In this document: piece after piece, positions 9,970-51,469 of the stretch
Layout: every line of letters starts with the position of its first letter
How positions within the stretch are numbered: the stretch's first letter is position 1
Assembly (NCBI GenBank): GCA_014803575.1
Contig: JAAVBO010000003.1
Span: forward strand, 87,165 to 151,164
Direction: 5' to 3'
Source: a bacterium
GTDB taxonomy: Bacteria; Pseudomonadota; Alphaproteobacteria; Rs-D84; CACZYB01
Length of the DNA: 64,000 nt
The notes under the pieces: model-generated
The model's input: only the letters and a program-made list of their open reading frames with translations
What the model was told of the DNA's origin: nothing
Databases searched by the model: none
Program-made: the position numbers and the translations under genes

Positions 9970-10124
9970 ATGATTTTAAATTTAGATTACACAAAGGAAA
10001 AAATATCAAATTTAAAGGATAAAAACACAATTTTATCATTAGTTAAAATTTTTGCTCAAAATAAAAATATTAATGAGGAATATAAAAATTTTTTAAATGA
10101 AATAATAACTTACATGGAGACAAA

Positions 10125-11084: not shown

Positions 11085-11087
11085 AAA

Positions 11088-12386: not shown

Positions 12387-12389
12387 AAT

Positions 12390-14498
12390 ATGGTAAATAA
12401 AACAATAAAAAATAAATTAGAAGAAAAAACATCACCTAAAATTTCAATTATTGTTCCTGTGTATAATGTAGAAAAATATCTACAAAGATGTTTAGATTCT
12501 TTGGTTAATCAGACATTAAAGGATATTGAAATAATATGTATTAATGATGGCTCCAAAGATAATTCATATAAAATTCTGAAGGACTATGCTAAAAGAGATA
12601 AAAGAATAAAAGTATTTACACAAGATAATTCAGGACCGGCCAAAGCCAGAAATGTAGGTTTAAAAAACGCAACAGGTGAATTTATAATGTTTTGTGATTC
12701 TGATGATGAATATACTGAAGATATGTGTAAAGATATGCTATCTTGTATAAAAAAACAGAATGTTGATCTTGTTATGTGTAATACTACGTTATTAAACAGA
12801 GAAGAGAAGGAGATAACAAGCAAATATTATTTCCCTTTTTCTCCTGGGAAATATACTGTTGATGATAGAATTAAAATTGGAATTAATGTATATTTATGGA
12901 ATAAAATTTTTAAAAAATCAATAATAGATTCTTATAATATTAAATTTCCAGAAGGACATAAATCTGATGATAATCTTTTTATTTACGAATATGTAATGGT
13001 TTCTGATAATATATATATTTTAGATGAAAAATTATATTATCATTATGATATAGAGAATTCTATTATGGATTTATATAATAGTAAGAAAATAAAGTTATGT
13101 GATGTATTAGATAAATTAGATATATTGATTAATTTATATAATTTTCTTCAAAAATATAATATATTTGTTCAAAATAAAAAAAGTTTTTCTTATATATTTT
13201 ATACCGAGTTATTTTATGCTTGGATACATGTTCCAGAAGAATTTAAAAAAGAATTTTTGACTAGAAGTTCTGAAGTAGTGCAAAATATCAAAATAAATAA
13301 TTTTTTATATAATCCTAGTGACTTGTATAAATTAAAAGTTATTGAAGTTATAAACAATAACAATTATTTAGCAGCAGAAAAATTATTAGATTTTTTATTA
13401 AGTACTCAAAATAAAGCTAGAAATAAATATTTATTTGCAGAAACAGTAAAACCGATTTTTAAAGAATATTGTATACCTATAGTTTTTAATTGTGATAATA
13501 ATTTTGTAATGTATTTATCAATTGCATTACAATCTATAATTGATAATTCTTCTGTTGAACATAATTATGATATTTGTATTTTAAATGAAGATATTTCTGA
13601 AAGAAATCAAGAAAAATTACATAGAATTTTTTATAAGCATAAAAATTTTTCTTTAAGATTTTTTAATATGAAAAATATTTCTTTACAATATAATTTATCA
13701 AAATATAAAACTATTAATCATGTAAAAACAGCTGCATATTATCGTTTGTTTGTTCCTGAAATATTTAAATATTATAAAAAAGTAGTCTATTTGGACAGTG
13801 ATATTATTGTTAATTGTGATATTTATAAATTAATAGAGAAAAATATAGAAAATTATTCTTGTGCTGCAGTACGTGATTTTTATATTTCTAATATTAAAGA
13901 AGGTAATGAATTTGTATTTCCTGGTATTATTGAGTATAGTAAAAATATACTTAATATTTCTAATTTTAATAAATATTTTAATTCTGGTGTAATGATTTTT
14001 AATATAAATAAAATGAATAAATTTAATTATTTTGATAAATTTATAAAAATTGCAGAAATTAATAATAAATATTTTAATGATCAAAATGTATTAAATTCAG
14101 TATTACAAGATGATGTTTATTTATTAGATTCTAGTTATAATATGCAACTTAATTCTGGAGCAATTCTTTTCATTTATTGTAATTTAATTCCTTTAAATAA
14201 AATAAAAATTTTGCATTTTTGTAGCAAATACAAACCGTGGAATAAATCATCTCTTGATCAATATGATACCATTTGGTGGGAATATGCAAGAAAAACTCCA
14301 TTCTATGAGGAAATATTAATGAATTTAATGAATGCAAAAAGTACACAAAATGTGAAAACTCAGCGTCCTAACAACAATAACTATCCTCAATTTCAATATC
14401 ATCATAAGTTAGAAAGAATATTTTCTGTAAAAGGGTTATATACACCAAACAAAAAATATAAAGTTCTTACAATTTTTGGTATAAAAATAAAATTTTAG
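12390..14498 (+). CDS. Bifunctional glycosyltransferase: N-terminal GT2 domain plus C-terminal GT8 (LgtC/RfaJ-like) domain
   Basis: N-terminus ISIIVPVYNVEKYLQRCLDSL...CDSDD. C-terminus YYRLFVPEIF...VVYLDSDIIV...NSGVMIFN, typical of GT8. Confidence 0.7.
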   Translation: MVNKTIKNKLEEKTSPKISIIVPVYNVEKYLQRCLDSLVNQTLKDIEIICINDGSKDNSYKILKDYAKRDKRIKVFTQDNSGPAKARNVGLKNATGEFIMFCDSDDEYTEDMCKDMLSCIKKQNVDLVMCNTTLLNREEKEITSKYYFPFSPGKYTVDDRIKIGINVYLWNKIFKKSIIDSYNIKFPEGHKSDDNLFIYEYVMVSDNIYILDEKLYYHYDIENSIMDLYNSKKIKLCDVLDKLDILINLYNFLQKYNIFVQNKKSFSYIFYTELFYAWIHVPEEFKKEFLTRSSEVVQNIKINNFLYNPSDLYKLKVIEVINNNNYLAAEKLLDFLLSTQNKARNKYLFAETVKPIFKEYCIPIVFNCDNNFVMYLSIALQSIIDNSSVEHNYDICILNEDISERNQEKLHRIFYKHKNFSLRFFNMKNISLQYNLSKYKTINHVKTAAYYRLFVPEIFKYYKKVVYLDSDIIVNCDIYKLIEKNIENYSCAAVRDFYISNIKEGNEFVFPGIIEYSKNILNISNFNKYFNSGVMIFNINKMNKFNYFDKFIKIAEINNKYFNDQNVLNSVLQDDVYLLDSSYNMQLNSGAILFIYCNLIPLNKIKILHFCSKYKPWNKSSLDQYDTIWWEYARKTPFYEEILMNLMNAKSTQNVKTQRPNNNNYPQFQYHHKLERIFSVKGLYTPNKKYKVLTIFGIKIKF

Positions 14499-14807
14499 GA
14501 AAGATATTAGGTTTATAGAATATATTCTATCGGTAAGAAATGAAAATCAATATAAGATACTAAGAATATTAGGGTTTAAAATTAAATTTAAAAGAAAAAA
14601 TAAATAATTATCAATTACTTATATGCTGAAAATCAAAGATTATATTTCTTTCGGTAAGATATTATTTTGGATTTTTAATTCAATTATTTCTTGATAATTA
14701 TAGAATTATACTTAAACTAATATTTAGTAAACAAGAAAAATATAATTGAGAAGAAAATTTTTTACAGTTTATTTTAAAACTGCAAAACATTTTTTGAAAG
14801 GTAGATT

Positions 14808-15899
14808 ATGTCTATATCTTATGTATTACAAACTCAACATAAGACTTTTAATGCAAATTTTCATACAGGGAAAATAGTATATGGTGAAAATAAAGAATTT
14901 AACTGGATTTATGATTGTGGAAAGAGTAATTTGGTTCGGCAATATTTAAAGGAAGTTGATAAAGTTGATTTGATTTTTATCTCTCATTTTGATAGAGATC
15001 ATATTAATGGACTTCCTATACTTTTAGCTGATCCTAAGGCAGAAAATGCACAAATAGTTGTGCCATATTTGACAGATGAAGATATTGCTATTTTATTCAG
15101 TGGAAATTTTTATTCATCAATAAAACAAAAGGAACGACAAGATGCTTTTTATAAATTTATGAATGAATTGTTAGAAATACAATCTCAGGAAAAGTTTGAG
15201 AAAGAGTTTGTTTATGATTTATCAAAAGATGATGAGAAGAGTGATAAAAATGATAAAGAGTGTAACGGACAAAAAATCATTCCTATTGTTGGAAATAATT
15301 GTGGTTTTGCAATGGAAGTAAAGTTTCCAAATGATGAAATATGGGCTTTTAAAACTCATGTTTTTGAAGATAGTAAATTAAGAAAATCAATGCAGAATTT
15401 GTTAAAAGGTTCAACACTGAAAAAAGAATTAAGGGATAATTTTAATGAGTTTAAGGAAAAATTCAAAAAAGAGTATAAGAAAGAGATACAAAAAATAAAG
15501 AAAGAATTGGGAGGAGAATCAAGAAATGTTATGACAATGTCCATGATTTCAATGCCTGAAAAAATAATATATTGTCATATCGATTGTGCTCCTCTTGCTT
15601 GGTTGCATACAGGAGATGCGTATCTATCTGACATTAATATTTGGAAACAATTTTTAGCTTTTTTGATTCCTTACAGATGGAGGATAAATGTTTGTGTGTT
15701 GCCTCATCACGCTTCAGTAAAAAGTGAAAATAAAAAATTGTATAGAATGCTAGATGAAATGTGTAATTATATTGTTACTCCGTCCTCAAGAGTTTCATTT
15801 TCTTATCCTTCGGTTAGAAACCTGTTTTTTGTTAATTGGTTAAGTTTTGAAACTATTTATAAACCGGATTATTTTATATATTCTCATTTTATATTTTAG
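14808..15899 (+). CDS. MBL-fold metallo-hydrolase with a ComEC-like HxDxDH motif
   Basis: LIFISHFDRDHINGLPIL, compared with the ComEC beta-lactamase-domain motif HADQDH. Confidence 0.45.
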   Translation: MSISYVLQTQHKTFNANFHTGKIVYGENKEFNWIYDCGKSNLVRQYLKEVDKVDLIFISHFDRDHINGLPILLADPKAENAQIVVPYLTDEDIAILFSGNFYSSIKQKERQDAFYKFMNELLEIQSQEKFEKEFVYDLSKDDEKSDKNDKECNGQKIIPIVGNNCGFAMEVKFPNDEIWAFKTHVFEDSKLRKSMQNLLKGSTLKKELRDNFNEFKEKFKKEYKKEIQKIKKELGGESRNVMTMSMISMPEKIIYCHIDCAPLAWLHTGDAYLSDINIWKQFLAFLIPYRWRINVCVLPHHASVKSENKKLYRMLDEMCNYIVTPSSRVSFSYPSVRNLFFVNWLSFETIYKPDYFIYSHFIF

Positions 15900-16192
15900 A
15901 AATTGTTGATTAAATATATATCTTGATTCCGGTAATTTTTATTGTTATTATTATATTAATTATGGAAAAGGGATTAGGAATATGAAAAAAATAAATGAGC
16001 TTTTGAAAATAAAACCTTCAATAGAAGAGTTTGAAAATTGTGTGAAAATTGGTAAGAATTTTTGGAAAAATTCTATGAAGGAACAATGTAAGTTGGTTGA
16101 AAAACAAAAGGAAGAGCATAGAAAATTAAAACCATCTCCTGAATTGTATAAGATAGAATTTACGTTATAAAATTGATTTAAAAAAAGGTAAA

Positions 16193-16642
16193 CTAAATAC
16201 GATTTAATTTATGATTTTTAAGAAAATTTTTGTTTGATAACATTAAGTTTTCAGGAAGATTATTTATATCAAACCATTTCCATTCGGCACATTTATTTCG
16301 TTCCATAACTTTTGGTTCTCCCTTATATTTTTTACAAAAAAGATGTAGTGTTATGTAATGTTTTTCTGTTTCTTTGAAAAAGTCATTAGTAACGCCTTCC
16401 AGCCACACATCGTTTGCGTTAATTGTAAGGTTTGTTTCTTCTTTTGCTTCACGAATTGCAGCTTCTTCGTTTGTTTCACCGAATTCCATATGACCACCAG
16501 GTGGACACCATGTATTAAATCCGTGTGGACTTTTCCTTAATCCCAATAATACTTGATTATGTTCATTGAAAATATATAATCCGACACCAACGCGAATACT
16601 TTTTTCCATAATTTTTCCCTTCTTATTCCTTCCTTTCCCCAC
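16193..16642 (-). CDS. NUDIX hydrolase
   Basis: Nudix box GGHMEFGETNEEAAIREAKEETNL. The true start is probably MEKSIRV at ~16609. Confidence 0.75.
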   Translation of the reverse strand: MGKGRNKKGKIMEKSIRVGVGLYIFNEHNQVLLGLRKSPHGFNTWCPPGGHMEFGETNEEAAIREAKEETNLTINANDVWLEGVTNDFFKETEKHYITLHLFCKKYKGEPKVMERNKCAEWKWFDINNLPENLMLSNKNFLKNHKLNRI

Positions 16643-16908
16643 AAATACCGAATATGAGTTTTAGGTTATATCGTTTTTTGTGGGTGAGGTGTATGCCTGT
16701 TGAGCTTATTACTATGACAGTTTTTAGAATCCAAATTCTTACGTAGTAGGATTTGTGTTTAAGTTTTATTTTTTCCTTTGTTCGATATTCAGAACCGTCC
16801 GGATTTTCGATTTCTGTGCTTTTCCCGAAACCGTATTTGTTGTTGTCAAAGTCCAAACCGTATTCAATATATATCATAAATTTATGATACTATAAATTAT
16901 AGGTTGTA

Positions 16909-17172
16909 TCAAGAATTATTTTCCAATTCTTTGTCTACCTCGCTCATATAACGACTGAAAGTTTCCCAGTCCATATTAGTGACTTTTAGAACTTTGCAAA
17001 TACTTTCACTTGATGGCCAACGACATTTTCCGCTTGGGTAGAAACGCTTGCTTTTGTTAAATGCAGTTGCATCTAAGCCCGCTTTTTTTGCCAGTGCGGA
17101 AACTGATAATCCGTTTATGTATGCTATTTTATCAATTACTTTCCATATTTTGGAATGTTCTTTGTTCATCAT
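16909..17172 (-). CDS. Small HTH DNA-binding protein (Ner/Nlp-like)
   Basis: LSVSALAKKAGLDATAF...WPS resembles the Ner/Nlp family pattern. Confidence 0.3.
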   Translation of the reverse strand: MMNKEHSKIWKVIDKIAYINGLSVSALAKKAGLDATAFNKSKRFYPSGKCRWPSSESICKVLKVTNMDWETFSRYMSEVDKELENNS

Positions 17173-17389
17173 TTTTTCTCTCCTTGTGTTACAATTTAAA
17201 GTAAAGTAAATTCAATATTTACAATCATAGAGAGAAAAATTTCCAATGCAATTAGAACATATTCCTACATAATATTAATTGTAATTGTTTTCCGGTTGTT
17301 TTTGTTATCCATAAATTTCCTTGACAGGATAGGGATTTGAAATTATTATAATTTTAATTTAATTCTTTTTATTAATTAGGGGAAATCAG

Positions 17390-18367
17390 TTGAAAAAATT
17401 ATTTATAATTGTGACATTTTGTTTTATGCAAATGATGTTTTCTGATTTGTTATTTGCTTCGTCATTTCAGGATTTTTTTGTGGTGAAGGGTATTAGTGTT
17501 TCGCAAAGTGCCTCTTCTTCCAGTGAAGCAAAAAAGTTAGCGTTAAGCAGTGCAAGAGATGAGGCTTTTAATACTGTTTTAAAAAGATTGCTTGTGTCCA
17601 GTGATATTTCGAATGTTGTTGTGCCTGATAATTATAATATGGAAAAGTTTATACAGACAGTCAAACTTAATAATGAAAAGACTACTTCAACATCATATAG
17701 TGCGGTTGTTGATGTGCAAATAAATAAGAATTTGATGTCGGATTATCTTAAAAATCAGGGATTTAAAGTTTTGGAAGATCTTCCTCCGTCTACTTTTTTA
17801 ATGTTTTCCGATGGTTATGATTATGGATTTTCGGATGCTAACTATGGAAATGGAAATGTAGTTCCGTTTGCAGGTGTTGGATATTCGGATTTGTATAGTT
17901 ATGATGTGGATAGTGCAAGTATTGATGTATTTAAAAGTATGCTTTCAAAATATAATGCAAATAATGTTATAGTTGTTAAAGTGCAAAGTGCAGGTGATGT
18001 TTATAATGTTTCGTTTAAGGATAAGCTTTTGGGTATAAATAGCAGTTTTAAAACCAACTATGAACATTTTGTGACTGACTTAGTTCTTGCAATAAATGAT
18101 GCTTATAAAATGGCAACAGATGAAGGTGATTTTGGAAAGTCAATTTCTATGTTGGTGCCTATATTCGGGCTTTCTGATTGGATAGATATTGAAAAAATTA
18201 TTTCTAAAGTTTCATCTATAAAATCCTATGAAGTGCAGGCTTTAAAGTATAATAAAGCTCAGTTGAAATTGAAATATAATTATGATTTAGATTCGGTCAT
18301 AAATGCTTTGCGTAAAGCCGGATTGGATGTGCAAAATAAGAATACTTACTTGATTGTGAAACGATAA
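17390..18367 (+). CDS. Hypothetical exported protein
   Basis: N-terminal signal peptide. Its stop codon overlaps the hda start (ATAATG). Confidence 0.45.
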   Translation: MKKLFIIVTFCFMQMMFSDLLFASSFQDFFVVKGISVSQSASSSSEAKKLALSSARDEAFNTVLKRLLVSSDISNVVVPDNYNMEKFIQTVKLNNEKTTSTSYSAVVDVQINKNLMSDYLKNQGFKVLEDLPPSTFLMFSDGYDYGFSDANYGNGNVVPFAGVGYSDLYSYDVDSASIDVFKSMLSKYNANNVIVVKVQSAGDVYNVSFKDKLLGINSSFKTNYEHFVTDLVLAINDAYKMATDEGDFGKSISMLVPIFGLSDWIDIEKIISKVSSIKSYEVQALKYNKAQLKLKYNYDLDSVINALRKAGLDVQNKNTYLIVKR

Positions 18368-19041
18368 TGCAACAATTACCTTTGATGTTGGAACATAGAA
18401 GACTTTTGGGTCGTGAAGATTTTCTTGTATCGCCTTGTAATATAGAGGCGGTAGAATGGATTGATGTGTATCCGGAATGGTATGGCAATAATGGTATTGT
18501 CGTTTTGGGTGATAAATCTTCCGGTAAAACGCATCTTTCTTGGCTTTTCAGTGAGAAGAGTGAAGCGAAAGTTTACAATATGTCAGAAATTAAAGATGAA
18601 ATTTTTTCTGATGTGGTGCCTATTAATTCTGCATTGGTGATAGATGATATTGATTTTGGAATAGGTGATTGGGAGTTGGAAGAAAATTTGTTTCATATAA
18701 TAAACTATGCGATTGAATGTAATACAAAGTTATTTTTTACAACAACTGTGTCTTTGAACAATTTAGAATTTCAAGTAATGGATTTGAAAACCAGATTACT
18801 TAGCTTTCCAGTGGCAAAAATTTATGCACCTGATGATGATTTATTAAAGGCTTTGCTTGTGAAACAATTTATGGAGAGGGGAATTGTTGTTGAGGCGGAA
18901 GTTATTGAGTATATTGTAAAGCATATTGAACGTAATGCTTCGTCTGTGAAATATCTTGTGGAAAGGGCTGATTTATTATCGGTTAGTGAAAAAAAGAAGA
19001 TTACCATACCTTTTATTAAAAAAATAATTGATGAAATGTAA
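18367..19041 (+). CDS. hda: DnaA-homolog Hda (DnaA regulatory inactivator) family protein
   Basis: GDKSSGKTHL Walker A, LVIDDIDFG Walker B, and a size and architecture like DnaA domain III with no DNA-binding domain. Confidence 0.65.
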   Translation: MQQLPLMLEHRRLLGREDFLVSPCNIEAVEWIDVYPEWYGNNGIVVLGDKSSGKTHLSWLFSEKSEAKVYNMSEIKDEIFSDVVPINSALVIDDIDFGIGDWELEENLFHIINYAIECNTKLFFTTTVSLNNLEFQVMDLKTRLLSFPVAKIYAPDDDLLKALLVKQFMERGIVVEAEVIEYIVKHIERNASSVKYLVERADLLSVSEKKKITIPFIKKIIDEM

Positions 19042-19042
19042 G

Positions 19043-19669
19043 TTATATTATATCTATATTTATTTTATGTTTGGTTAATATTTGTTGTAATGTTTCTTTT
19101 GAAAGAGAACCGTGTCTTAACATTTCAATTTTGTTATTTGAAATTTTTATTATGGTAGATGGTGTGCCCGACAATACCTCATTTGTTTGAAGTATTGGGA
19201 TTTGAGGAAAGATTTTTTCGGCATTATCTGCTATTAGGCAAGGAGAATTTCCTGATTTATTACAGCTTGTTGAAATAAGGGGTGTGCTTATCTTTGTAAG
19301 AATTTGTTGAAGGGTTTTATTGTTTGGAATGCGGATACCTATTTCATTATTTTTGATTGTAAGAGGGGAAAGTTTTGTATTTTCTTTTGCTCTTACAATT
19401 ATGGTTAAATCACCAAATGTTTTTAGTAAAAGTTTTTCTGTTTTTGTGAGGTTTGCAAAGTTTTCAATACTTTTTATATTTGGAAAATTCAGGAGTAGGG
19501 TTTTTGTTTTTTTTCTTCCTTTTAATTTATAAATTTTTTCTATTGCGGTTGTGTTTGTTGCATTACAACCTATGCCGAAAACTGTATCGGTTGGGAATAT
19601 GATTACTTCGTTATTTAAAATTTTTTGTATGAAAAGTTTAATGTTTTTCTTATTATTTTCAAATATCAT
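19043..19669 (-). CDS. tsaC: L-threonylcarbamoyladenylate synthase (YrdC/Sua5 family, t6A)
   Basis: IIFPTDTVFGIGCNATN...KGRKKTKTLLL: YrdC fold motifs. 208 aa. Confidence 0.75.
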   Translation of the reverse strand: MIFENNKKNIKLFIQKILNNEVIIFPTDTVFGIGCNATNTTAIEKIYKLKGRKKTKTLLLNFPNIKSIENFANLTKTEKLLLKTFGDLTIIVRAKENTKLSPLTIKNNEIGIRIPNNKTLQQILTKISTPLISTSCNKSGNSPCLIADNAEKIFPQIPILQTNEVLSGTPSTIIKISNNKIEMLRHGSLSKETLQQILTKHKINIDII

Positions 19670-19743
19670 AAATACAGCCTTGATTAGTTTTAATTTTTCA
19701 GTTATTATATATTATATACAAATTAAAAATAAATACAAATGGT

Positions 19744-20811
19744 TTGACTATGAAGATTTTACATTTTATTGATAGTTCTTATTTTTATCTTCACAGAAAG
19801 ACTATTTCTGAGCTTATTTTATCGCTTAGCAAGAATGGAGTGGAGCAGGAGGTAATTACTTCTAATGGAACTCAATTAGGTTTGATTTCTCAGGTAGTAT
19901 CTGTTAGATATTGGAAGGTTGCTAATGGTAGAAGTGCGAATACTTTTATGAATAAGTTCAGAATGTGGCTTTGGGCTTCTCAGTTTTCTCCTGATATTGT
20001 TATTAAGTGGGGAAAACAGGCACGACAGTTGGCTCCGTCTGGTGATTTTGTGCAAATTTCTTTTTTGAATGAGAAGGCTAATTTGAACAGTTTTGATAAG
20101 TCTGATTACATTATGACTAATTTGGAAAGTGTTCTTGAATATGTGAAGCAAAATGGATTTAGTGGTGCAAAGGCGTTTTATGTGCCTAGTTTTGTTTATG
20201 AATATAAGGATGTGAAACCTTTGGATAGGAGAGATTTTTATATGCCGGAAAAGGCAAAGATAATTTATATTGCTGGTAATTTTTTAAAGGGGATTGGGTT
20301 TGAAAATATGTTTGAAGTTGTGTCCTCTATTCAGAATACTTACTTTTTTATTGTCGGAAGTGGGCGAGATGATGAGTATATTAAGGATTATGCGTCAAGA
20401 GTTAATATGAAGGCCAGATCTCGTTTTATTGAAGAGATTGAAAAGTCGTTTGTTGCATTGCAACTTGCCGATTTTGCGATTTTGACTTTTGATGATTTGG
20501 AACTTCAAAAGAACATTTTGGAGGCGTGGTTAAGTAAAAAATTGGTTCTGACTCTTAAAAATGATATTTCTTCCGAGTTTGTGAAGGATGGTGTGAATGG
20601 TTTTGTTGTGCCGAAGAATGATACTTATTTTTTACGAAAGAAGTTGAAGGAAGTGATGGAACTTTCGGAGGAAGACAAAAATCGTATTGTTAATAATGCT
20701 TATGAAAATGCGAAGGATTTTGTGGATTCAAAAATAATCCTTAATTATATTAAGGTATTTGAAGATCTTATATCCAAATATAATTCCAGAAAAAATCTGT
20801 TTAATAATTAG
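19744..20811 (+). CDS. Glycosyltransferase group 1 (GT4)-like protein, degenerate
   Basis: MKILHFIDSS N-terminus and the overall length and pattern of GT-B enzymes. Weak. Confidence 0.35.
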   Translation: MTMKILHFIDSSYFYLHRKTISELILSLSKNGVEQEVITSNGTQLGLISQVVSVRYWKVANGRSANTFMNKFRMWLWASQFSPDIVIKWGKQARQLAPSGDFVQISFLNEKANLNSFDKSDYIMTNLESVLEYVKQNGFSGAKAFYVPSFVYEYKDVKPLDRRDFYMPEKAKIIYIAGNFLKGIGFENMFEVVSSIQNTYFFIVGSGRDDEYIKDYASRVNMKARSRFIEEIEKSFVALQLADFAILTFDDLELQKNILEAWLSKKLVLTLKNDISSEFVKDGVNGFVVPKNDTYFLRKKLKEVMELSEEDKNRIVNNAYENAKDFVDSKIILNYIKVFEDLISKYNSRKNLFNN

Positions 20812-39561: not shown

Positions 39562-40152
39562 ATGATTGTTAAGCGATTTATCAAAGGTCCGCTTCAAAAT
39601 AACAATTATGTGATTATTGATGAAGAATCTCGTGAAGCGGTACTTATTGATTGCAGTGAGCCATCTGATGATATTATGGATTATATAAAGGAGCAGGGGG
39701 CAACATTGAAATATATACTTCTTACCCATACACACCCTGATCATATACAAGGGGTTAATTATTATAGAAAGAAGTATGGGGTTTCGGTTTTTCTTCATAA
39801 GGATGACTTTCCTCTATTGAGTCAGCTTGGTCAATATTTTGCAGGGGCGGAGTCCGTTTCGGTGGATAAATTGTTTGATGATGATGCAGAGTTTAGTATA
39901 GGTAATAAAAAGATAAAAGTTATACATACCGCTGGGCATACTGAGGGTAGTGTATGCTTTTTGATTGATAATATGCTTTTTTCAGGGGATACTTTGTTTT
40001 ACGGAACTTATGGTCGGACGGACTTGCCGTTTGGTGATGAAAGGAAGATGTTTGAAAGTTTGAAAAGACTTTTTAAACTTGATAATGATATTGTTGTTTA
40101 TCCGGGACATGGAAGAGATACCGGAATAGGGGCGGAGAAAGTTAGATATTAA
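39562..40152 (+). CDS. MBL-fold hydrolase (GloB/hydroxyacylglutathione hydrolase-like)
   Basis: THTHPDHIQG, the classical HxHxDH motif. 196 aa. Confidence 0.7.
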   Translation: MIVKRFIKGPLQNNNYVIIDEESREAVLIDCSEPSDDIMDYIKEQGATLKYILLTHTHPDHIQGVNYYRKKYGVSVFLHKDDFPLLSQLGQYFAGAESVSVDKLFDDDAEFSIGNKKIKVIHTAGHTEGSVCFLIDNMLFSGDTLFYGTYGRTDLPFGDERKMFESLKRLFKLDNDIVVYPGHGRDTGIGAEKVRY

Positions 40153-40222: not shown

Positions 40223-40834
40223 ATGACAATATATACATATTTAAGGGTATCAACAGACAAGCAGGATTATTATAATCAGCGGGTTGGAATTATTGATTTT
40301 TGTAATAAAAACGGATGGAAGATTGATAAAGAAATTATTGATGACGGTGTTAGTGGTGTAAAGGAACCTATTAACAGAAAACTTGGTAAATTATTAAAAG
40401 AAATAAAATGTGGTGATATTTTGGTGGTGTCGGAAATTTCACGGTTGGGAAGAAAGCTTTTTATGCTTTTTCGCATACTTGAAAATCTGCTTAATAATGG
40501 GGTTAATGTTTATTCCGTGAAGGATGGATATTCTCTTGATAATTCTATACAAAGTAAGGTGTTGGCGTTTGCTTTTGGAATGGCGGCTGAAATAGAGCGT
40601 GATATGATTTCGCTTAGGACGAAGGAGGCTTTGGCTAAAAAAAGGAAAGATGGAGTTGTCCTCGGACGACCAAAAGGTAGAAAAAATAAAAGGTTGAAGC
40701 TTTGTGATAAGGTTGAGGATATAAGGTATTTGTTGGATTTACAGATTCCGAAAATAAGAATTGCAAAAAAATTGAAAGTTTCAAAAAATACTTTGAATAG
40801 GTTTATTAAATTATATGATATAAAAAAATGTTAA
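40223..40834 (+). CDS. Small serine recombinase (Hin/Gin invertase / resolvase family)
   Basis: YLRVSTDKQ catalytic-Ser motif, GDILVVSEISRLGR and GRPKG motifs, and a C-terminal HTH (IAKKLKVSKNTLNRFIK). 203 aa. Confidence 0.85.
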   Translation: MTIYTYLRVSTDKQDYYNQRVGIIDFCNKNGWKIDKEIIDDGVSGVKEPINRKLGKLLKEIKCGDILVVSEISRLGRKLFMLFRILENLLNNGVNVYSVKDGYSLDNSIQSKVLAFAFGMAAEIERDMISLRTKEALAKKRKDGVVLGRPKGRKNKRLKLCDKVEDIRYLLDLQIPKIRIAKKLKVSKNTLNRFIKLYDIKKC

Positions 40835-40846
40835 AATTATATAAAA

Positions 40847-40868
40847 AATCCCCCGTACGGAGGATTTT
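40847..40868. terminator. Hairpin trailer shared with tRNA-Lys(TTT); bidirectional terminator
   Basis: aatcccccgtacggaggatt is the reverse-complement copy of the aatcctccgtatgggggatt element at 43325-43344 and 48985-49004. Confidence 0.55.
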
Positions 40869-40875
40869 CAAACTT

Positions 40876-40951
40876 TGGTGGGTGATTGGGGATTCGAACC
40901 CCAGACCCACTGATTAAGAGTCAGTTGCTCTACCAACTGAGCTAATCACCC
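40876..40951 (-). tRNA. tRNA-Lys (anticodon CTT)
   Basis: 76-nt cloverleaf read by hand: GGGTGAT acceptor, anticodon loop CTCTTAA, T-loop GGTTCGAATCC, and an encoded CCA. Confidence 0.85.
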
Positions 40952-41069
40952 AAAAATATTTTTTAAGTATAAATGCTTTTATTCATAAATTCAAGTATTT
41001 TTTATAAATAAAAATTTTTATTTGAAAGGGAAGTAAACAAAATATATTTCTTTACTTCCCATATTACCC

Positions 41070-43171: not shown

Positions 43172-43241
43172 TATTTTTATAAAAAATGCTTGACTATATA
43201 CTTTTTTGTAGTATTATTTATTGCTATAAAGCATTAGCTTT

Positions 43242-43317
43242 GGGTGTTTAGCTCAGCTGGTAGAGCAACTGACTTTTAATCAGTGGGTCACAGGTTCAAG
43301 TCCTGTAACACCCACCA
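43242..43317 (+). tRNA. tRNA-Lys (anticodon TTT)
   Basis: 76 nt: GGGTGTT acceptor, anticodon loop CTTTTAA, T-arm GGTTCAAGTCC, and an encoded CCA. Confidence 0.85.
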
Positions 43318-43352
43318 AAGTTTGAAAATCCTCCGTATGGGGGATTTTTTTT
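43309..43352 (+). repeat. Left 44-bp direct repeat (tRNA-Lys 3' end plus trailer hairpin); attL-like
   Basis: 43 of 44 positions match 48969-49012. Confidence 0.7.
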
Positions 43353-43384
43353 CTGAGAAAAATAAATATATAGGAGGAGTTAAA

Positions 43385-44100
43385 ATGGCAGATAATAAAA
43401 AATCGTTTTTGAAATATCTAAAACAAGAAAAATTACAAGGAAAAATCAGAAGTTATGAATTATATTTTAAAAGAAAACTTACTGAATTGGAACAAACTAT
43501 TTTTGGTATTACAGGAAAACAGCTTTTTGAAATTGATAATGTTGCCGATTTAGAAAAATTATTAGAAGAATTAAGTGAAGAAAAAAATGGCGTGATTATT
43601 CCTCTAAATATGGCCATGGTATTCCCAATGCCATAGTTGCTACACATTATAGAAATTTTTTAAAATCAAAAAAAATTATTAAAGATATTGAAGATGATAC
43701 AATCAAAATAAGTAAAAAAACTGAAAGAAAAGCCTTTATTAAATTAAGGTTAGGACAATCAACGCTTCGTAAAAAAATTCTTAAAAAAAGAAAAGAATGT
43801 GAAATTTGTAAAATTAAAAATAAAAAACTATTAATTATTAGTCATATAAAACCTTGGGCTAAATCTAACGATTTAGAAAAACTTAGTGAAGACAATATTT
43901 TATTATTATGTCCTATGCATGATGCATTATTTGATAAAGGTTTAATTTCTTTTGATGAAAATGGTAAAATCTTAATTTCATCTAAACTTGATAAGAATGA
44001 ATTGAAATTGATGAATATTGATAAAGGAAGTAATATAAAAATAAATTCAGAAGAGCAAATTGAATTTTTAAAATATCATAGAAAAAAATATTTTCCTTAA
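43385..44100 (+). pseudogene. HNH nuclease (HNH_2-like), frameshifted
   Basis: The N-terminal part (MADNKKSF...) ends in frame at 43636. The HNH core (CEICKIKNKKLLIISHIKPWAKS...LLCPMHDALFDKG) continues in another frame with no ATG until 43915. A shift of one base at ~43600-43625 explains this. Confidence 0.5.
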
Positions 44101-44255
44101 ATAACTTCAATATCTTTCAATATCTATAAATACCTCACTAAAACCTACCATTAATTTAAATTGTAAAGTAGGTTTCTGGGGGGCTTTCATACCATTTTCT
44201 TTTTTCAATGAATGGGCGTAGGTTGTGGAAAGATTAAGGATTTTGTATTTGTAAT

Positions 44256-44916
44256 TTACTTTGCACCCATACTTGAAAGCTCTGATTTCTCATCATTATT
44301 ATTGGCTTTCACAAAGCCGTAATCAAAGAAAATGCTTGGGCTGAAATCACGCAAAAGTATATTCTGACTTTTAAAAATATCGCTCATGCTAAACTTCAAA
44401 TCGTTCCTTATGTAAAAACCGCTGTCCCCCGGTAATACCATCATTGCTAAATCCACGAACGGAGGCCTCACTTCCAATATAAAATCCGTCGGAGGAGAAA
44501 AGTTCATCACGGCTGTATTGCCCGTCAAATGTAGTTGCCAAATTTACAAAACCGAAATTAAATTCCTTGTCAATATAGGCGTTTGTGATAGTGTTAAGAA
44601 GTTTGTTTATCTCATCTACGGTCAAGCATTTATTAAGAAAAGGTTTTGCAAGTTTGTTGATTTCGCCAGAGGAAAGTTTTGTATTCCCATCAAATTCAAT
44701 GCTGTTGATTTGAACGCAGTGTGATGATTTTTGAGGGGCAGTTTCCTCCTGTTGTTGAGGTTGTTGTGTTACGGGTTTTGTGATTGCTCGTTCAAGCTCC
44801 TGCCTTCTAAATCCCGCATCAATTAATTGTTGTTGTGAACGTTGAATTTGTTCAGGAGTTTGCGAAAACACTACCCTCGCACAGAATACAAAAATAACTA
44901 AAAATACCTTTTTCAT
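44256..44916 (-). pseudogene. Remnant of a TpsB (ShlB/FhaC-type) two-partner-secretion transporter, truncated and frameshifted
   Basis: Signal peptide plus a POTRA-like region (VQINSIEFDGNTKLSSGEINKLAKPFLNKCLTVDEINKL). Only ~260 aa span two frames. No TpsA gene is nearby. Confidence 0.45.
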
Positions 44917-45297
44917 AATGGGAAAATTATACTATTTGCGATTTTTAATGCAAGGGGAAAATTGAAAGTAAATCGGTATTTATATTTTGTTCTTGACTTT
45001 TTGGAGAAAATGTAGTATTTATATATAAATCGTGAATAATAAATGAAAATAAAGCTTCGTAATGTGTGTATTGAATTTTATTGATATTAAAACTTTTGTT
45101 AATATCTCAACTCCACTTGTAATAAATTGTTTACAAGAAATGAAAGGAGAAATTATGGGAATATTAATGAGAAGTGTAGAGTTGTACCTATTGCTGTGGA
45201 GTATATGATATTTACATATATTTTAATATCTTTTTCTTTATATACATAGAAGAGTCAATAGGAGATAATTTTATATTATCTGACTCCACACCATTTT

Positions 45298-45966
45298 TTA
45301 ATCAGGAAAGTTCTCAATAAAATCTTTAAGTTCTTCGAGTATAATAAAAGCATTTGTTGTTGGATTATTTAAGTCTATTTCTTTATTATCAATAATACAG
45401 TGTTCTTTCCTAATTTTTTTAGCGTTTTCAATTGCTATTGATATATTATTTTGCATTTTAGAAAAATCTAATTCTTTTTCATAATTTAGTAAATATTTTT
45501 TTAATTTACAAGGACAGTCATCTTTAGATATTTCAGTTGGACAATATACAAAATGTAATAATGCCCAAAATTCTATATTAGGAATACTATATATAAAATG
45601 TATACCATGTTCTTTTGCTTTCTTTATAGCGTTTTGTAATTTAGTTTTATGAGCATTAGTTGTTCTATCATCTTCATCAATTACAACAAAAACTTTATCA
45701 TGTTCATTTTTATCTTTAGTTTCTTCAATTGCTCTATCAGTTAATTTTTCACAATCTTGATCACTTCCTGGTCTTGGAATATCTATTTGTCCCAAAATAG
45801 TTCTTCGTTTATTTTCGTTATCAGGATAAATTTCTCTTACAAGAAAATTTTTTAAATCAGTTAAATATTTTGATTCTGTAACTTTCCCTTCAACAAAAAA
45901 ATCAACACGGGGTCTTTGAATTTTGAGTTTGTTAAAATATTGATCTCTTTTATTTTTTTTAGGCAT
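45298..45966 (-). CDS. RloB-like (TOPRIM-like) protein, partner of the AAA_21 ATPase (AbiLii-like)
   Basis: N-terminal motif RVDFFVEGKVTESKYL (an EGxxTE-type motif) and an IEFWALLHF motif, both recalled as typical of the RloB family. Confidence 0.6.
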   Translation of the reverse strand: MPKKNKRDQYFNKLKIQRPRVDFFVEGKVTESKYLTDLKNFLVREIYPDNENKRRTILGQIDIPRPGSDQDCEKLTDRAIEETKDKNEHDKVFVVIDEDDRTTNAHKTKLQNAIKKAKEHGIHFIYSIPNIEFWALLHFVYCPTEISKDDCPCKLKKYLLNYEKELDFSKMQNNISIAIENAKKIRKEHCIIDNKEIDLNNPTTNAFIILEELKDFIENFPD

Positions 45967-45968
45967 TA

Positions 45969-47330
45969 TTATTCATCCATTAATTTTTCTAATTCTCTAA
46001 TATCTCCTAGAAAGGGAATTGCTCCAAATCTACCTTTTAAATAACCGGATTCATAATCATAATTATTTCTTATATCTTTGAATGATGATAATGGATAAAC
46101 TGTTGATACTCCAGAAATATCTTTTTCTATAAACCAAATTTCATCCCGTCTTAATATATCACTTTTTAATAAATTAACATCATGGGTTGTACATATAAGT
46201 TGAGCTCCACCTTTGTTTATCTTTGGATTATTAAAAGCTTGAACCAATCTTTTAACAAGAATAGGATGTAGAGATCTTTCTATTTCATCACAAATAAATA
46301 TTCCACCATTTATAAAAGCAGGATAGAACATAATTATTTTACTTAAAAAAGCTAATGTACCGTCACTTTCTTGATTATTACTTAAAGGATATTCATTACC
46401 ATCTTTACCAATATGATAGTATTTTAACTGATAATCATATTTTGGAGGTTCAAAATTTTCTATTTGCACACTTTTAAATTTTGCAGTTATTTTTTTATTA
46501 AATATATCAAATAATTCCTTATTAAGAGATTGTGTTTCTTCATCAATTTTAATTTGTTCTATTTCAAATCTAGAAATACCTAAATCAATAGAATTAAGCC
46601 ATTGACTAATTTTATTAATTTCTCGCTTATTATTATATAATTCTACTAATCTATTATCAGGAATTTGAAATTCATTACAGAAGATAAAACATTTATTAAA
46701 AAACTTATGTATTCTTGTATAAGGAATTATATTTCTTTTTGTTAATAGTTCTAAGACTAAAACATCTTGTCTTTTAGATATAGTATCCTTAATATAATCT
46801 TTATCATAATTAGAGATATCACTGTCCTCATAAACTATATTTCCATTTTCTCTATTGTATAGTATTTTATTATTAGATGTTAAAGTTTCTGTTTTTATAA
46901 TTTGTTTGTTAAATATTAATTTATATATTATAATTTTCTTATCTAAGAAAAACTCAAATTCGAGAAGAGAATCTTTAGATTTACTTTCTTCATCAAGGAT
47001 GAAAGGAACATATGCAGATAATTTTGATAAATTTTTTTCTGAATTATTTAAAAATTGTTTCATTTTTAAAAATAATGATAATAATTTAGATTTACCAGAA
47101 GCATTTGCTCCATAAAAAATAGAAACAGGTAATACTTTATCTTCATCTTCTTTTGTTTCTATTAAATTCCAAAATTCTTTTTGTGAAGAGAAACGAGTTT
47201 CTTCAGAAAATAAAATATGATTTTCATCTTTGAAAGAAAAATGGTTAGAAAAAGATATTCTAATTATATTAGATCTTTCTTTTTTCATAGTATATCTCCG
47301 AATTTTAGTTAACTGATATTTATAATACAT
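45969..47330 (-). CDS. AAA_21-type ATPase (AbiLi / RloC-like abortive-infection ATPase)
   Basis: Walker A GANASGKSK, ICDEIERSLHP (Walker B / D-loop) and LICTTHDVNLL (H-loop). 453 aa. It lies 2 bp upstream of the RloB-like gene. Confidence 0.65.
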   Translation of the reverse strand: MYYKYQLTKIRRYTMKKERSNIIRISFSNHFSFKDENHILFSEETRFSSQKEFWNLIETKEDEDKVLPVSIFYGANASGKSKLLSLFLKMKQFLNNSEKNLSKLSAYVPFILDEESKSKDSLLEFEFFLDKKIIIYKLIFNKQIIKTETLTSNNKILYNRENGNIVYEDSDISNYDKDYIKDTISKRQDVLVLELLTKRNIIPYTRIHKFFNKCFIFCNEFQIPDNRLVELYNNKREINKISQWLNSIDLGISRFEIEQIKIDEETQSLNKELFDIFNKKITAKFKSVQIENFEPPKYDYQLKYYHIGKDGNEYPLSNNQESDGTLAFLSKIIMFYPAFINGGIFICDEIERSLHPILVKRLVQAFNNPKINKGGAQLICTTHDVNLLKSDILRRDEIWFIEKDISGVSTVYPLSSFKDIRNNYDYESGYLKGRFGAIPFLGDIRELEKLMDE

Positions 47331-47496
47331 ATATTTTTAACGAAATCAATAAAATTTGCATTTTTTTTGCAAACATTGTCATAAAAAATTCTTATATAAA
47401 AAATTTTATTTACATTTGTATATATTTGTATTGACAATGCAAATAAAATAAGATATACATAAAATTATGTATATAAAATTATATAAGGATACAAAA

Positions 47497-47673
47497 ATGA
47501 TTAACATAAATATAAGAATTGATGAGCAATTAAAAAAGGATACTGAGGTTATATTGGATAGTTTAGGATTGACTATATCTGATGCAGTAAGGATTTATTT
47601 TTCGCAGATTCGAAATACAAGGAGTATTCCTTTTATGTTGAAAAGTAATGAAGAGCCTCAAGATAAGGAGTAA
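47497..47673 (+). CDS. RelB/DinJ-family antitoxin (orphan)
   Basis: MININIRIDEQLKKDTEVILDSLGLTISDAVRIYFSQIRNTRSIPF aligns with the DinJ N-terminus. No intact toxin gene follows. Confidence 0.55.
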   Translation: MININIRIDEQLKKDTEVILDSLGLTISDAVRIYFSQIRNTRSIPFMLKSNEEPQDKE

Positions 47674-47950
47674 AATATGAAAAGACAAGAAAAATGTCCA
47701 AAGTGTAAATAAGTTCATGAAATAACAAATATATGGAAAGATTTATGTCCGCATTGTAAATTAAACATTTCTAAATTTGTATTGGTAGTCTTGTCTTTTT
47801 GGATATTTCTTATTCTAGGAGCTATTAAAAACAAATAAAACACCAGCTCCTGTATGGGCATTATGGAGTTTTATAATAAGTCTTATTATTATGATTTACG
47901 ACTTGAATTATATTTCAAAGATGAAGAAGAAATAATATATAAGGTATAAT

Positions 47951-48836
47951 ATGGAAAATTTACATAAATATCTGGAAAACAATAAAGTATTTCTTGCAAA
48001 GGTAATTCATTTTATTGATTATGCAGATACTGCACTTGATAAAAAATGTCTGGAAGATTTAAAAAATAGTAAATATAAAGGGCATTATGAAATAAATAAC
48101 TTTAAGAAAAGATGGAAAAGTTTATGGTTTTGTAGCTAAGGCTAAGCATAAATTATTAATAGAAAAATTTGGTGCAAATAAAAAAGATAGTCTTGTTAAA
48201 AATTGTCTAGTAATTTTTATCTCTGATGCAGCTCAAGTTGTTGGATATTATAAAGATGCAACAATATATAGAAATTCTCAATCAAATGAATTTTCTGATT
48301 ATTATTTTTTTGAGGCGGATGTAGAAAATACTTTCATTATATCTCCTTATAACAGATGGGATATAAAATTTTCGGATTTAAATTTTGGACAAGCTCAAAG
48401 AAAATATGTAGATGAGAAAAATAGAAAGGCAGTATCTGATATTTTAAAAAAATTAGAAAATAATGGTAAAGAAAATAATTTATATCAGGAAACATCAGAA
48501 TTAACAACTAAGGAAAAAAAGTTTTAGTTCCTCACCTAAAATGTGAAGGTAGAATATCTCAAAACATAGTTAATAAAATAAAAAAAGAAAAAGGATATAC
48601 TTGTGAAGTGTGTGGTTTTAATTTTTCTGTCCATTATAAACATTTTGAAATCTAATTTTATAGAATTGCATCATTTAAATATGTATAAAAATCTAAGAGA
48701 AAATGAAACTAGAAAATTAAATAAAAATGATTTTGCTGTATTATGTTCCAATTGTCATAGAATGATACATAAATTAAAATCAATTGAAGGAAATAAGAAG
48801 GATATAGAAAAATTAAAAAAACTTTATAAAAAATAA
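47951..48836 (+). pseudogene. Decayed HNH endonuclease gene (possibly a former type IV / McrA-like restriction enzyme) with multiple frameshifts
   Basis: The HNH core is split across frames: CEVCGFNF...HYKHFEI (stop), then ELHHL...NDFAVLCSNCHRMIH. The N-terminal ~190 aa are also split across at least two frames. Confidence 0.45.
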
Positions 48837-48968
48837 GAATTAAGAAATTTAATATATATCTTCTTTCCTATACCAGTCAGCACTAAACGAAAATTCTGAA
48901 AATGGAATAATGGGAGAAAAACAATAGGTTTGTGGATAATATAGAAAAGTTAGAGAATGGTTCACAAT

Positions 48969-49012
48969 CACCCACCAAAGTTTGAAAATCCTCCGAATGG
49001 GGGATTTTTTTT
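48969..49012 (+). repeat. Right 44-bp direct repeat (orphan tRNA-Lys 3' end plus trailer hairpin); attR-like
   Basis: A copy of 43309-43352 with one mismatch (a at 48996 versus t at 43336). No tRNA body lies upstream. Confidence 0.7.
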
Positions 49013-49578: not shown

Positions 49579-49687
49579 TAGTTTTTGTTCCATATATGAA
49601 CCTATACTTCCAAGCAGACAGGATACTTTGGAAACTTCGCGTCATCTTAATCTTTATTATGAAATTTATGTGAGTGAATGCAAATGA
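49511..49687 (+). CDS. o-spanin-like small lipoprotein overlapping the i-spanin-like gene
   Basis: MRKLKLKLVLIMLVLTSC has lipobox LTSC. The ORF overlaps the 49387 gene out of frame (Rz/Rz1-like arrangement), and its stop overlaps the endolysin start (ATGCAAATGA). Confidence 0.3.
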   Translation: MRKLKLKLVLIMLVLTSCTTEIDSFCSIYEPILPSRQDTLETSRHLNLYYEIYVSECK

Positions 49688-50094
49688 ATTCTTTGATAAA
49701 AAAGTATGAGGGATGTTTCCTTGTTGCCTATAAATGTCCGGCCGGTGTTTGGACTATTGGTTATGGAAATACAAATGTTGATGGAGTGCCTGTTTATGAA
49801 GGAATGAGTATTACACAGGATAGAGCGGAGGTACTTCTTTCTGAATGGATAGAAAATGAAGTTAAGCCATACATTTCCGACCTTAATTTAAAAGGAAAAC
49901 AGCTTGAAGCTATAATTTCCCTTGTTTATAATGTTGGAGGTCCGGCATTTAAAAAATCCAAACTTAGACAGGCAATACTTAACAAAGATTATGAGTCCGT
50001 GTGTCGCGAATGGGATTTTGGTTTTAAATCCAATCTTAAAGGTATATATAAAAGAAGGGTTGAAGAACTTTTTCTTTTCATAAGTGAAATATAA
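49678..50094 (+). CDS. Phage-type lysozyme (GH24 endolysin)
   Basis: YEGCFLVAYKCPAGVWTIGYGNT ... LVYNVGGPAFKKSKLRQAILNKDYESVCREW. A Cys occupies the position of the conserved second catalytic Asp (YKC versus YKD). Confidence 0.75.
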   Translation: MQMNSLIKKYEGCFLVAYKCPAGVWTIGYGNTNVDGVPVYEGMSITQDRAEVLLSEWIENEVKPYISDLNLKGKQLEAIISLVYNVGGPAFKKSKLRQAILNKDYESVCREWDFGFKSNLKGIYKRRVEELFLFISEI

Positions 50095-50095
50095 T

Positions 50096-50128
50096 CTCTC
50101 CCCATCATCATAGGTGGGGAGTTTTTTT
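50096..50128 (+). terminator. Terminator after the endolysin gene
   Basis: ctcccca-tcatcatagg-tggggag followed by a T7 run. Confidence 0.6.
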
Positions 50129-50150
50129 ATATTTAATATAGGAGGAAAAT

Positions 50151-50987
50151 ATGACAAAGATATTAAAAAGGATAGAAGATTTAATGCTATCCGATGCTTA
50201 TACAAACTTATCAAATCCTAAACATAAAGAAGTAACGGATGAGGTAAGCAAGTATTTCAAAGAGAATTTTAAAGATGGTCCAAATAGCAAAAAGAAATAT
50301 AAGTGGGTATGTGGTCCAAAAGATAATTGTGGATATTGTGCATTATTAAACGGGAAGATGTTGGATAATATGGAAGATTTTGAGGTATGTCCTCCAGTTC
50401 ATCCTAATTGTAAATGTGAGATTATAGAGGTATGGGTTGAGGAAGAGGATGATGAGGAAATAAAAATTAGTGATAAAGGTATAGAATTTTTGAAAGAACA
50501 AGAAGGCAGTATAACTTATCAAAAGAAAATAGGATCGTATAAAGATGGGATGTTTCGTGTATATAAAGATAATGCTGGATATGATACTATTGGATACGGA
50601 CATAAATTAAAAGAAAATGAAAAAAATAGAGGAGTTTTCAAGAATGGTATTACAGAAGAAGAAGCAGAAAAACTGTTACTTAAAGATTACCAAGTTGCTA
50701 TTGATGATTATAATAAATATATAAAAAGAAAAGACTATACTCAAAATCAAGTTGACGCAATTTTATCTTTCTTGTATAATGCAGGAGGTGGTGTCAATGT
50801 TGGAAAATCCAATACTGTATACTTATTAAAAAATAAATTAGATAAACATCCTGTCAGTAAGAAGATATTGGAAAAAGAATTTAAGGAATGGAATACATCA
50901 GATGGAGAATATAATGATGTTTTAAACAAAAGGAGAAATGCAGAATGGGAATTATTTACAAAGGGAAAATACAAAGTAAAAAAATAA
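50151..50987 (+). CDS. Fusion of a MuF-like Cys-motif module to a GH24 lysozyme (paralog of 4543..5502); no signal peptide
   Basis: CGYCALLNGKML...VCPPVHPNCKCEI, then FLKEQEG...VYKDNAGYDTIGYGHKL and ILSFLYNAGGG lysozyme motifs. Confidence 0.55.
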   Translation: MTKILKRIEDLMLSDAYTNLSNPKHKEVTDEVSKYFKENFKDGPNSKKKYKWVCGPKDNCGYCALLNGKMLDNMEDFEVCPPVHPNCKCEIIEVWVEEEDDEEIKISDKGIEFLKEQEGSITYQKKIGSYKDGMFRVYKDNAGYDTIGYGHKLKENEKNRGVFKNGITEEEAEKLLLKDYQVAIDDYNKYIKRKDYTQNQVDAILSFLYNAGGGVNVGKSNTVYLLKNKLDKHPVSKKILEKEFKEWNTSDGEYNDVLNKRRNAEWELFTKGKYKVKK

Positions 50988-51469
50988 TAATTTTTGTATT
51001 ACTACTTATAATTTCTTCTGTCTCAGTAAAAGCTGAAGACTGTAAAGAAGAGGATTATGATAGATTTTTTAATTTTATAGAAAAAAAAGTCTATTGCGAT
51101 TTGGAAGGTGATGGTAACGGTTGGGATAAATTATGTAATGATCAAATAAATTGTTATGGCTTAGGAGCGGGGGCAATAGATTGTATTGGAACAGAATTAA
51201 AAGCTTGTGATAAACTATTGAATGAAGAATATCAGAAAGCAATGGAACGAGCAAAAGAGTATGATGATTGTGAAAGAGATAAACCTTATGGTAAAAAATG
51301 CCATTGGGAACGTTTAAAACAAGCAGAACTTAGTTGGATAAAATTTAGAGATGAAGATTGTGAAGTTGATGTTAATTTTTACGCAAGTGTTAGTAGTCTT
51401 GATATTGTTGTTTGTCGTAGAGAAAAAACAAAAGAAAGAATAAAACAATTAAGACAGTTTTTTAAATAA
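50945..51469 (+). CDS. Periplasmic DUF1311 / LprI-like (lysozyme-inhibitor family) protein
   Basis: Signal peptide, then CDKLLNEEYQKAMERAK ... LKQAELSWIKFRDEDCE, matching the DUF1311 pattern L..aQraW..yRD..C as I recall it. The start overlaps the preceding gene by 43 nt. Confidence 0.5.
   Translation: MGIIYKGKIQSKKIIIFVLLLIISSVSVKAEDCKEEDYDRFFNFIEKKVYCDLEGDGNGWDKLCNDQINCYGLGAGAIDCIGTELKACDKLLNEEYQKAMERAKEYDDCERDKPYGKKCHWERLKQAELSWIKFRDEDCEVDVNFYASVSSLDIVVCRREKTKERIKQLRQFFK

Follow-up and report, generated by a model that had tools for sequence, protein, structure and literature searches.

AbiL of Lactococcus is classed, together with Old, Gabija, PARIS and MADS, among the defence systems that combine an ATP-binding cassette (ABC) ATPase with a TOPRIM domain (PMC11464382, PMC12409363), and the same placement is given in PMC13064643. 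As far as Deng 1999 is reported in PMC13064643, both genes of lactococcal AbiL are needed and the system acts after phage transcription. AriB, the effector of PARIS, and P2 Old are tRNA-cleaving nucleases (tRNases) (PMC12409363; bioRxiv 10.64898/2026.07.10.737580). It is regarded in a 2026 review as still to be determined whether AbiL and RloAB act like PARIS (PMC13064643), and no paper solving the mechanism of AbiL was found in the literature searched. Here, a related gene pair is described from a 64,000-nucleotide (nt) stretch of an alphaproteobacterial genome (contig JAAVBO010000003.1 of assembly GCA_014803575.1, positions 87,165 to 151,164), which is called the window throughout. The pair, located at 45298-47330 of the window, is probably a split OLD-like anti-phage module of the AbiL family, composed of an ABC ATPase and a separate TOPRIM-like nuclease.

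The likeness to AbiLi/AbiLii, proposed in an initial annotation made from the sequence alone, was upheld by searches with hidden Markov models. With PADLOC, the ATPase matched the AbiLi model (PDLC02335) at 9.1e-74 (246 bits), about 160 bits above the runner-up, a generic 304-position AAA_21-type 'AriA' model (1.5e-25). The smaller protein, of 222 amino acids (aa), matched AbiLii (PDLC02337) at 8e-17 (60 bits). Pfam assigned the ATPase to AAA_21 (7e-24, 85.8 bits; gathering cut-off 27) and the 222-aa protein to RloB (1.5e-32, 113.8 bits; cut-off 31.5), the latter match covering profile positions 4-195 of 195. NCBIfam provided no specific model; MAD3 reached 19 bits, its cut-off being 420.

Since neither the plasmid collection nor the literature searched yielded the founder AbiLi/AbiLii of plasmid pND861, a homologue from a lactococcal prophage was used as reference. 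The Lactococcus prophage proPhi7 (MN534320) carries ORF55 and ORF56, of 410 aa and 192 aa, which lie 1 bp apart and are both annotated as 'abortive phage resistance protein'. Their scores with the PADLOC AbiLi and AbiLii models, 254 and 64 bits, are nearly equal to those of the window pair. In tblastn, the window ATPase matched the proPhi7 pair at 2e-16 over 94% of the ATPase length, and BLASTP of the window RloB protein against the small prophage protein gave 5e-7. A RloB profile built here was aligned with ORF56 by hhalign over 167 columns (99.2% probability, E 9e-20). The window pair is ~26-27% identical to the lactococcal homologues. Gene order, a junction of 1-2 bp and the best PADLOC models are common to both pairs, and each small protein is a Pfam RloB member with EGxTE and DxD motifs. 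The lactococcal pair is found on a plasmid or prophage, whereas the window pair resides on a chromosomal tRNA-linked islet of a Gram-negative-type bacterium with low guanine-plus-cytosine (GC) content. The pair is an intact, routine member of the AbiL family, which is large and already catalogued, and standard defence-finding tools would detect it automatically.

Two open reading frames (ORFs) lie side by side on the minus strand, at 45969-47330 (453 aa) and 45298-45966 (222 aa). The initial annotation had reported them as 2 bp apart, and both the coordinates and the junction were borne out by the ORF list and the sequence. In DNA this rich in AT, where stops have a frequency of ~0.084 per codon, the chance of an open run was estimated as P~5e-18 for 453 codons and P~3e-9 for 222 codons, which excludes chance ORFs. 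The length of 453 aa is that of the maximal ATPase ORF, and the start codon needs correction. The public protein (P0001), which is 100% identical, begins at Met15 and has 439 aa, a GGAG Shine-Dalgarno sequence is present 8 nt upstream of the ATG at 47288, and the ATPase homologues are 431-440 aa long. For these reasons the gene most likely extends from 45969 to 47288. Both ORFs are full length in comparison with their homologues. In the public record the ATPase is named 'ATP-binding protein' and its partner 'RloB domain-containing protein'. With the sequence GAA-TAA-TA-ATG, the operon junction could permit translational coupling of the two genes. A junction of 1-2 bp recurs in four close loci (L003, L004, L006 and L007). 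With respect to an RNA component, Rfam yielded only three tRNAs in the window.

The motifs named in the initial annotation, namely Walker A, Walker B and the H-loop in the ATPase and an EGxxTE-like motif in the RloB protein, are all present on the translations (Table 1). Invariance of ATPase residues was evaluated over 42 homologues and is given in the numbering of the 439-aa protein. The AlphaFold (AF2) model of the ATPase, with a predicted local distance difference test (pLDDT) value of 86.6, matched Rad50, SMC heads, Septu and retron PtuA and Thermus OLD at E ~1e-10. By sequence, the closest solved ATPase was PtuA (8ee4, 2.4e-7), and the match of the ATPase profile to P2 Old was limited to the segment from Walker B to the H-loop. 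The protein is a Rad50/SMC-like ABC ATPase in which the site for ATP binding and hydrolysis is complete. Beyond the H-loop a C-terminal tail, GYLxGRFGAIPFLG, was observed (residues 407-425, window ~46012-46070), in which Y416, G419, G422 and P425 are invariant. This tail is a candidate docking site for RloB.

In the 222-aa protein, G27, T30, E31, D97, D99, S127, E132, W134 and H138 were invariant among 24 RloB proteins, and E26 was nearly so, being kept in at least 90% of them. In the structural model (pLDDT 87.5; predicted template modelling score, pTM, 0.83), E26 comes right after strand 21-25, and D97-x-D99 is found where strand 91-97 ends. The acidic residues are therefore predicted to be placed as in a TOPRIM active site, a layout (Glu after strand 1, DxD after strand 3) by which Aravind et al. 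in 1998 reportedly defined TOPRIM domains. Foldseek gave no significant match for the RloB model, and its best structural matches were Ts OLD, a class 2 OLD and GajA. A sequence-profile link between RloB and the TOPRIM domain of P2 Old was considered and dropped, as hhalign gave no match, and no solved relative of the RloB family was found by sequence in the PDB.

Table 1. Coordinates of the gene pair, its motifs and the borders of the surrounding islet (window positions).
Feature	Position	Strand	Details
AbiLi-like ABC (AAA_21) ATPase	45969..47288	-	439 aa; longest ORF to 47330 (453 aa)
Walker A / P-loop, GANASGKS	47088..47111	-	on translation; G60, N62, G65, K66 invariant
ABC signature-like motif, ESDGT	46356..46370	-	on translation; E307, S308, G310, T311 invariant
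Walker B pair D334-E335 (IFICDE), then SLHP	46284..46289	-	D334, E335, H341 invariant
H-loop H369 (TTHD)	46182..46184	-	on translation; H369, Q363 invariant
Operon junction, 2-bp spacer	45967..45968	-	ATPase TAA 45971-45969, then RloB ATG at 45966
AbiLii-like RloB-family protein, predicted TOPRIM-like nuclease effector	45298..45966	-	222 aa
EGKVTE (E26, G27, T30, E31)	45874..45891	-	on translation; right after strand 1, predicted TOPRIM Glu
D97-E-D99	45670..45678	-	closes strand 91-97; predicted DxD motif of TOPRIM, metal-binding
Divergent intergenic region, ATPase/relB	47289..47466	.	candidate promoter inside
RelB-family antitoxin-like gene	47467..47673	+	divergent from ATPase; Pfam RelB 7.5e-13
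Left 44-nt direct repeat	43309..43352	+	last 9 nt of tRNA-Lys(UUU) and terminator-like hairpin; islet left border
Right 44-nt direct repeat	48969..49012	+	1 mismatch; islet right border

When the pair was compared with the other systems of this type, PARIS was the best mechanistic analogue, since it is likewise a two-gene operon with a split ABC ATPase and a TOPRIM-type effector. Its effector AriB is, however, a DUF4435/TOPRIM tRNase, whereas the window effector is a RloB protein, and no DUF4435 or AriB model of Pfam or PADLOC matched the 222-aa sequence. The ABC ATPase fold is common to the window ATPase, P2 Old, the class 1 and class 2 OLD nucleases and Gabija GajA. In these proteins the ATPase and TOPRIM parts are fused in one polypeptide, whereas the window encodes two proteins. 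The GajA model reached only 0.0021, and no GajB-like helicase gene was found in the islet. In the case of MADS, the PADLOC mad3 model gave 8e-8, against 9e-74 for AbiLi. As regards Septu PtuA/PtuB and the retron-associated PtuAB, PtuA was also among the top fold matches of the ATPase, but the effector there is an HNH nuclease, in contrast to the RloB/TOPRIM effector of the window.

The two genes occur together over a wide range of genomes. In the four close loci, whose ATPases are 34-99% identical, the RloB gene is found directly downstream of the ATPase gene. For the survey of distant loci one genome per species was used; at least 568 ATPase relatives were obtained and the best 80 loci were inspected. 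An ORF matching the RloB profile was located directly 3' of the ATPase in 74 of these 80 best loci, which span many bacterial phyla and one archaeon. The other six distant ATPases (L020, L034, L048, L066, L087 and L088) had neither a RloB gene nor a co-oriented ORF downstream, and they are either orphan ATPases or have lost the partner. At E <= 1e-3 the RloB family comprised 12,861 cluster representatives (50% identity). Homologous pairs are also carried by small enterobacterial plasmids and a few phages, and the nearest named homologues belong to metagenome-assembled genomes of Alphaproteobacteria.

A RelB/ParD-type protein was considered as a third, regulatory component and was rejected as a general one, being not recurrent upstream across 84 loci. 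These loci contain 126 small ORFs on the upstream side of the ATPase gene, among which Pfam detected RelB once, ParD_like once and only a few helix-turn-helix proteins. An antitoxin-like small gene is divergently upstream in the window and in L007 (RelB) and in L004 (ParD-like), and the 68-aa protein upstream in L003 is unrelated to RelB.

The initial annotation had also pointed to the restriction-linked rloA/rloB genes. This likeness holds at the family level, as Campylobacter RloA/RloB share the Pfam RloB family and the ATPase partner, but it does not extend to the restriction link, because no restriction-modification genes were found in the annotated parts of the window. It is accordingly extremely improbable that the pair is an accessory working with a restriction-modification system, even though the small protein is in Pfam RloB and an HNH_2 protein (257 aa), encoded by the related islet on metagenomic contig L007, matches PADLOC HNH / type II restriction-enzyme models (3.7e-25). 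Neither type I restriction-modification (hsd) nor methyltransferase genes or domains were detected among the annotated neighbours or the scanned window ORFs, and the HNH_2 gene, the only nuclease neighbour, is a pseudogene in the window. Furthermore, the conserved unit consists of the two genes alone in the four close and the 74 distant loci. The low-GC region at 9-21 kb is a polysaccharide gene cluster.

The pair had been placed on an island, and an islet of 5.66 kb (43309-49012) with direct-repeat borders was indeed delimited beside a tRNA gene, tRNA-Lys(UUU), located at 43242-43317. Over 45-49 kb the GC content is as low as 0.23-0.24. The interval enclosed by the repeats shares ~91% identity with L007 (6904-12717), a similarity that begins at the left repeat and ends at ~48977-49000. 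The L007 copy of the islet is flanked by other genes and adjoins tRNA-Val(UAC). No integrase gene was found inside the islet. When an empty insertion site was sought in relatives, the same strain alone was retrieved, and an exact-junction scan of metagenome contigs gave none. The repeat recurs a third time at 40858-40884, but this copy was discarded as a recombination site, since it is explained by inverted tRNA-Lys paralogues with their terminators. Together with the terminators, these tRNA-Lys CUU and UUU genes make up an inverted repeat of 112 nt with 88% complementarity (40843-40954 / 43239-43350). The repeat encloses the flavodoxin, MerR and MltG/YceG genes and could act as a substrate for inversion.

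The intact cargo of the islet consists of the AbiL pair and relB. Four neighbouring genes (43337-44100, 44154-44916, 47677-47932 and 47951-48836) are frameshifted in the window. In L007 all four are open reading frames. They encode the HNH_2 protein, 255 aa from what is no more than part of a ShlB-type transporter gene (ShlB/POTRA), a zinc-ribbon membrane protein of 88 aa, located 3' of relB, and a 325-aa HNH-like protein. At 8038-8484 of L007, relB is followed after 3 bp by this 88-aa protein, which has hydrophobic stretches and no family match, and which is a candidate for an unusual toxin partner of RelB. As the 88-aa gene is broken in the window, relB is left there as an orphan.

Unlike these four genes, the AbiL pair is intact. 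It is also under purifying selection, since comparison with the L007 copy gave dN/dS values (ratio of non-synonymous to synonymous substitution rates) of 0.05 in the case of the ATPase and 0.17 in that of RloB. The ATPase had a synonymous divergence (dS) of 0.037 and RloB one of 0.338, and the nucleotide divergence was 0.8% and 9.4%, respectively. This inequality arises because the divergence of the islet is mosaic. Identity to L007 reaches 99-100% over the stretch 46200-47800, which includes relB, the intergenic region and the larger part of the ATPase gene, and is 85-95% in the remaining islet. The stretch of 1.6 kb has the appearance of a recent recombination tract with one end within the ATPase gene. 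The related islet, with its near-identical ATPase and 12%-diverged nuclease, could help to map the contacts between the two proteins.

These values bear on the question of whether the pair might be a non-functional remnant that decays along with the islet, as could be suspected from the four neighbouring pseudogenes and from promoter and terminator signals at background level. A candidate promoter, TTGATT-16-TATTAT, was located by consensus scan at 47349-47322 on the minus strand, and it is a candidate only, because promoter-like sites were not enriched over shuffles. Against a remnant stand the two ORFs, full length as described above with all catalytic residues intact, the low dN/dS values and the 1.6-kb tract over the ATPase, whose identity of ~100% to the relative implies a recent exchange of a working copy. 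Such a remnant is considered very unlikely.

The results above establish that the pair belongs to its family, that its catalytic motifs are intact, that the two genes are strictly conserved together and under purifying selection, and that they reside on a small islet of horizontally moving DNA. Regarding the function of the module, we infer a nuclease gated by the ATPase from analogous systems, because the mechanism of AbiL itself is unsolved. If PARIS AriA/AriB and P2 Old are taken as models, the ATPase would serve as sensor and regulator of infection. It would restrain the nuclease in the absence of a phage cue and activate or release it in response to one. The nuclease would then cut host or phage nucleic acid, possibly tRNA, and the cut would stop phage growth at a cost to the infected cell. 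On the same analogy the RloB nuclease is possibly a tRNase like AriB and Old, and, if true, this would settle the mechanism of AbiL.

Several observations weigh against an anti-phage module of this kind. The match of the 222-aa protein to AbiLii spans just profile positions 24-91 of 170, although the lactococcal reference ORF56 shows equally partial coverage. The islet around the pair is decaying, as shown by its four frameshifted genes. The number of promoter-like sites was not above that in shuffles (26 found vs 25.5 expected), and a terminator scan gave none. To our knowledge, no phage is known for this host. With respect to sequestration of the nuclease by the ATPase, it was reported that in E. 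coli the Fusobacterium AbiLi failed to neutralise AbiLii and that lactococcal AbiLii was non-toxic (PMC3985639).

The Fusobacterium experiments are relevant also to the possibility that the pair is an addiction module, with RloB as toxin and the ATPase as neutraliser, that would stabilise the islet and have no dedicated anti-phage role. Fusobacterium AbiLii was toxic in E. coli (PMC3985639), and pairs of an AAA ATPase with TOPRIM_OLD acted as toxin-antitoxin pairs in neutralisation assays (PMC10440598). An addiction role would also be in keeping with the presence of homologous pairs on very small enterobacterial plasmids and with the fact that, relB aside, the pair is the sole intact cargo of a decaying mobile islet. 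However, Fusobacterium AbiLi failed to neutralise its partner, and chromosomal single-copy spread over many phyla is left unexplained. In addition, lactococcal AbiL is defined by phage resistance, in so far as Deng 1999 is cited in PMC13064643 and PMC3985639, and an addiction role is compatible with defence, since PARIS is both (PMC13064643). Addiction in place of defence is for these reasons regarded as unlikely, and the split OLD-like defence module is retained as the probable reading.

As for the mobility of the islet, a small serine recombinase (resolvase) gene was observed at 40223-40834, just past the tRNA-Lys(CUU) terminator and 2.5 kb from the islet. Its product is 45% identical to a resolvase of L003 (8019-8621), which directly adjoins the AbiL pair in that locus. 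A small serine recombinase might mobilise such islets. A broader picture can be drawn tentatively, in which the islet is an integrase-free mobile defence cassette that hops between tRNA genes (tRNA-Lys-UUU, tRNA-Val-UAC) by means of a recombinase acting in trans, a small serine recombinase of this kind being one candidate, and in which the sensor half, composed of most of the ATPase gene, the region upstream of it and relB, was swapped by recombination separately from the nuclease half. This picture is speculative and rather doubtful.

The locus adds one intact AbiL-family member from a low-GC uncultured bacterium known from metagenome assemblies alone. Its residual value is related to the unsolved mechanism of AbiL, to a copy that is compact and under selection, and to the integrase-free, tRNA-associated islet that carries it.

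Some further features were observed elsewhere in the window. Two phage-type lysozyme genes are present at 49678-51469; the second one has an N-terminal extension weakly similar to Mu F / VG15, and its end overlaps the beginning of a gene for an LprI lysozyme inhibitor. The region may represent either a remnant of a prophage or an effector with its immunity gene. At 39562-40152 a hydrolase of the metallo-beta-lactamase (MBL) fold is encoded, with a weak precomputed match to the anti-Pycsar Apyc1 family, and it is probably an ordinary metallo-beta-lactamase-fold enzyme. The polysaccharide biosynthesis cluster mentioned above extends over 9001-20811, where the GC content is as low as 0.18. It includes glycosyltransferases (GT) of families GT2, GT8 and GT1, an epimerase/dehydratase, a UDP-glucose dehydrogenase and several ORFs with no family match.

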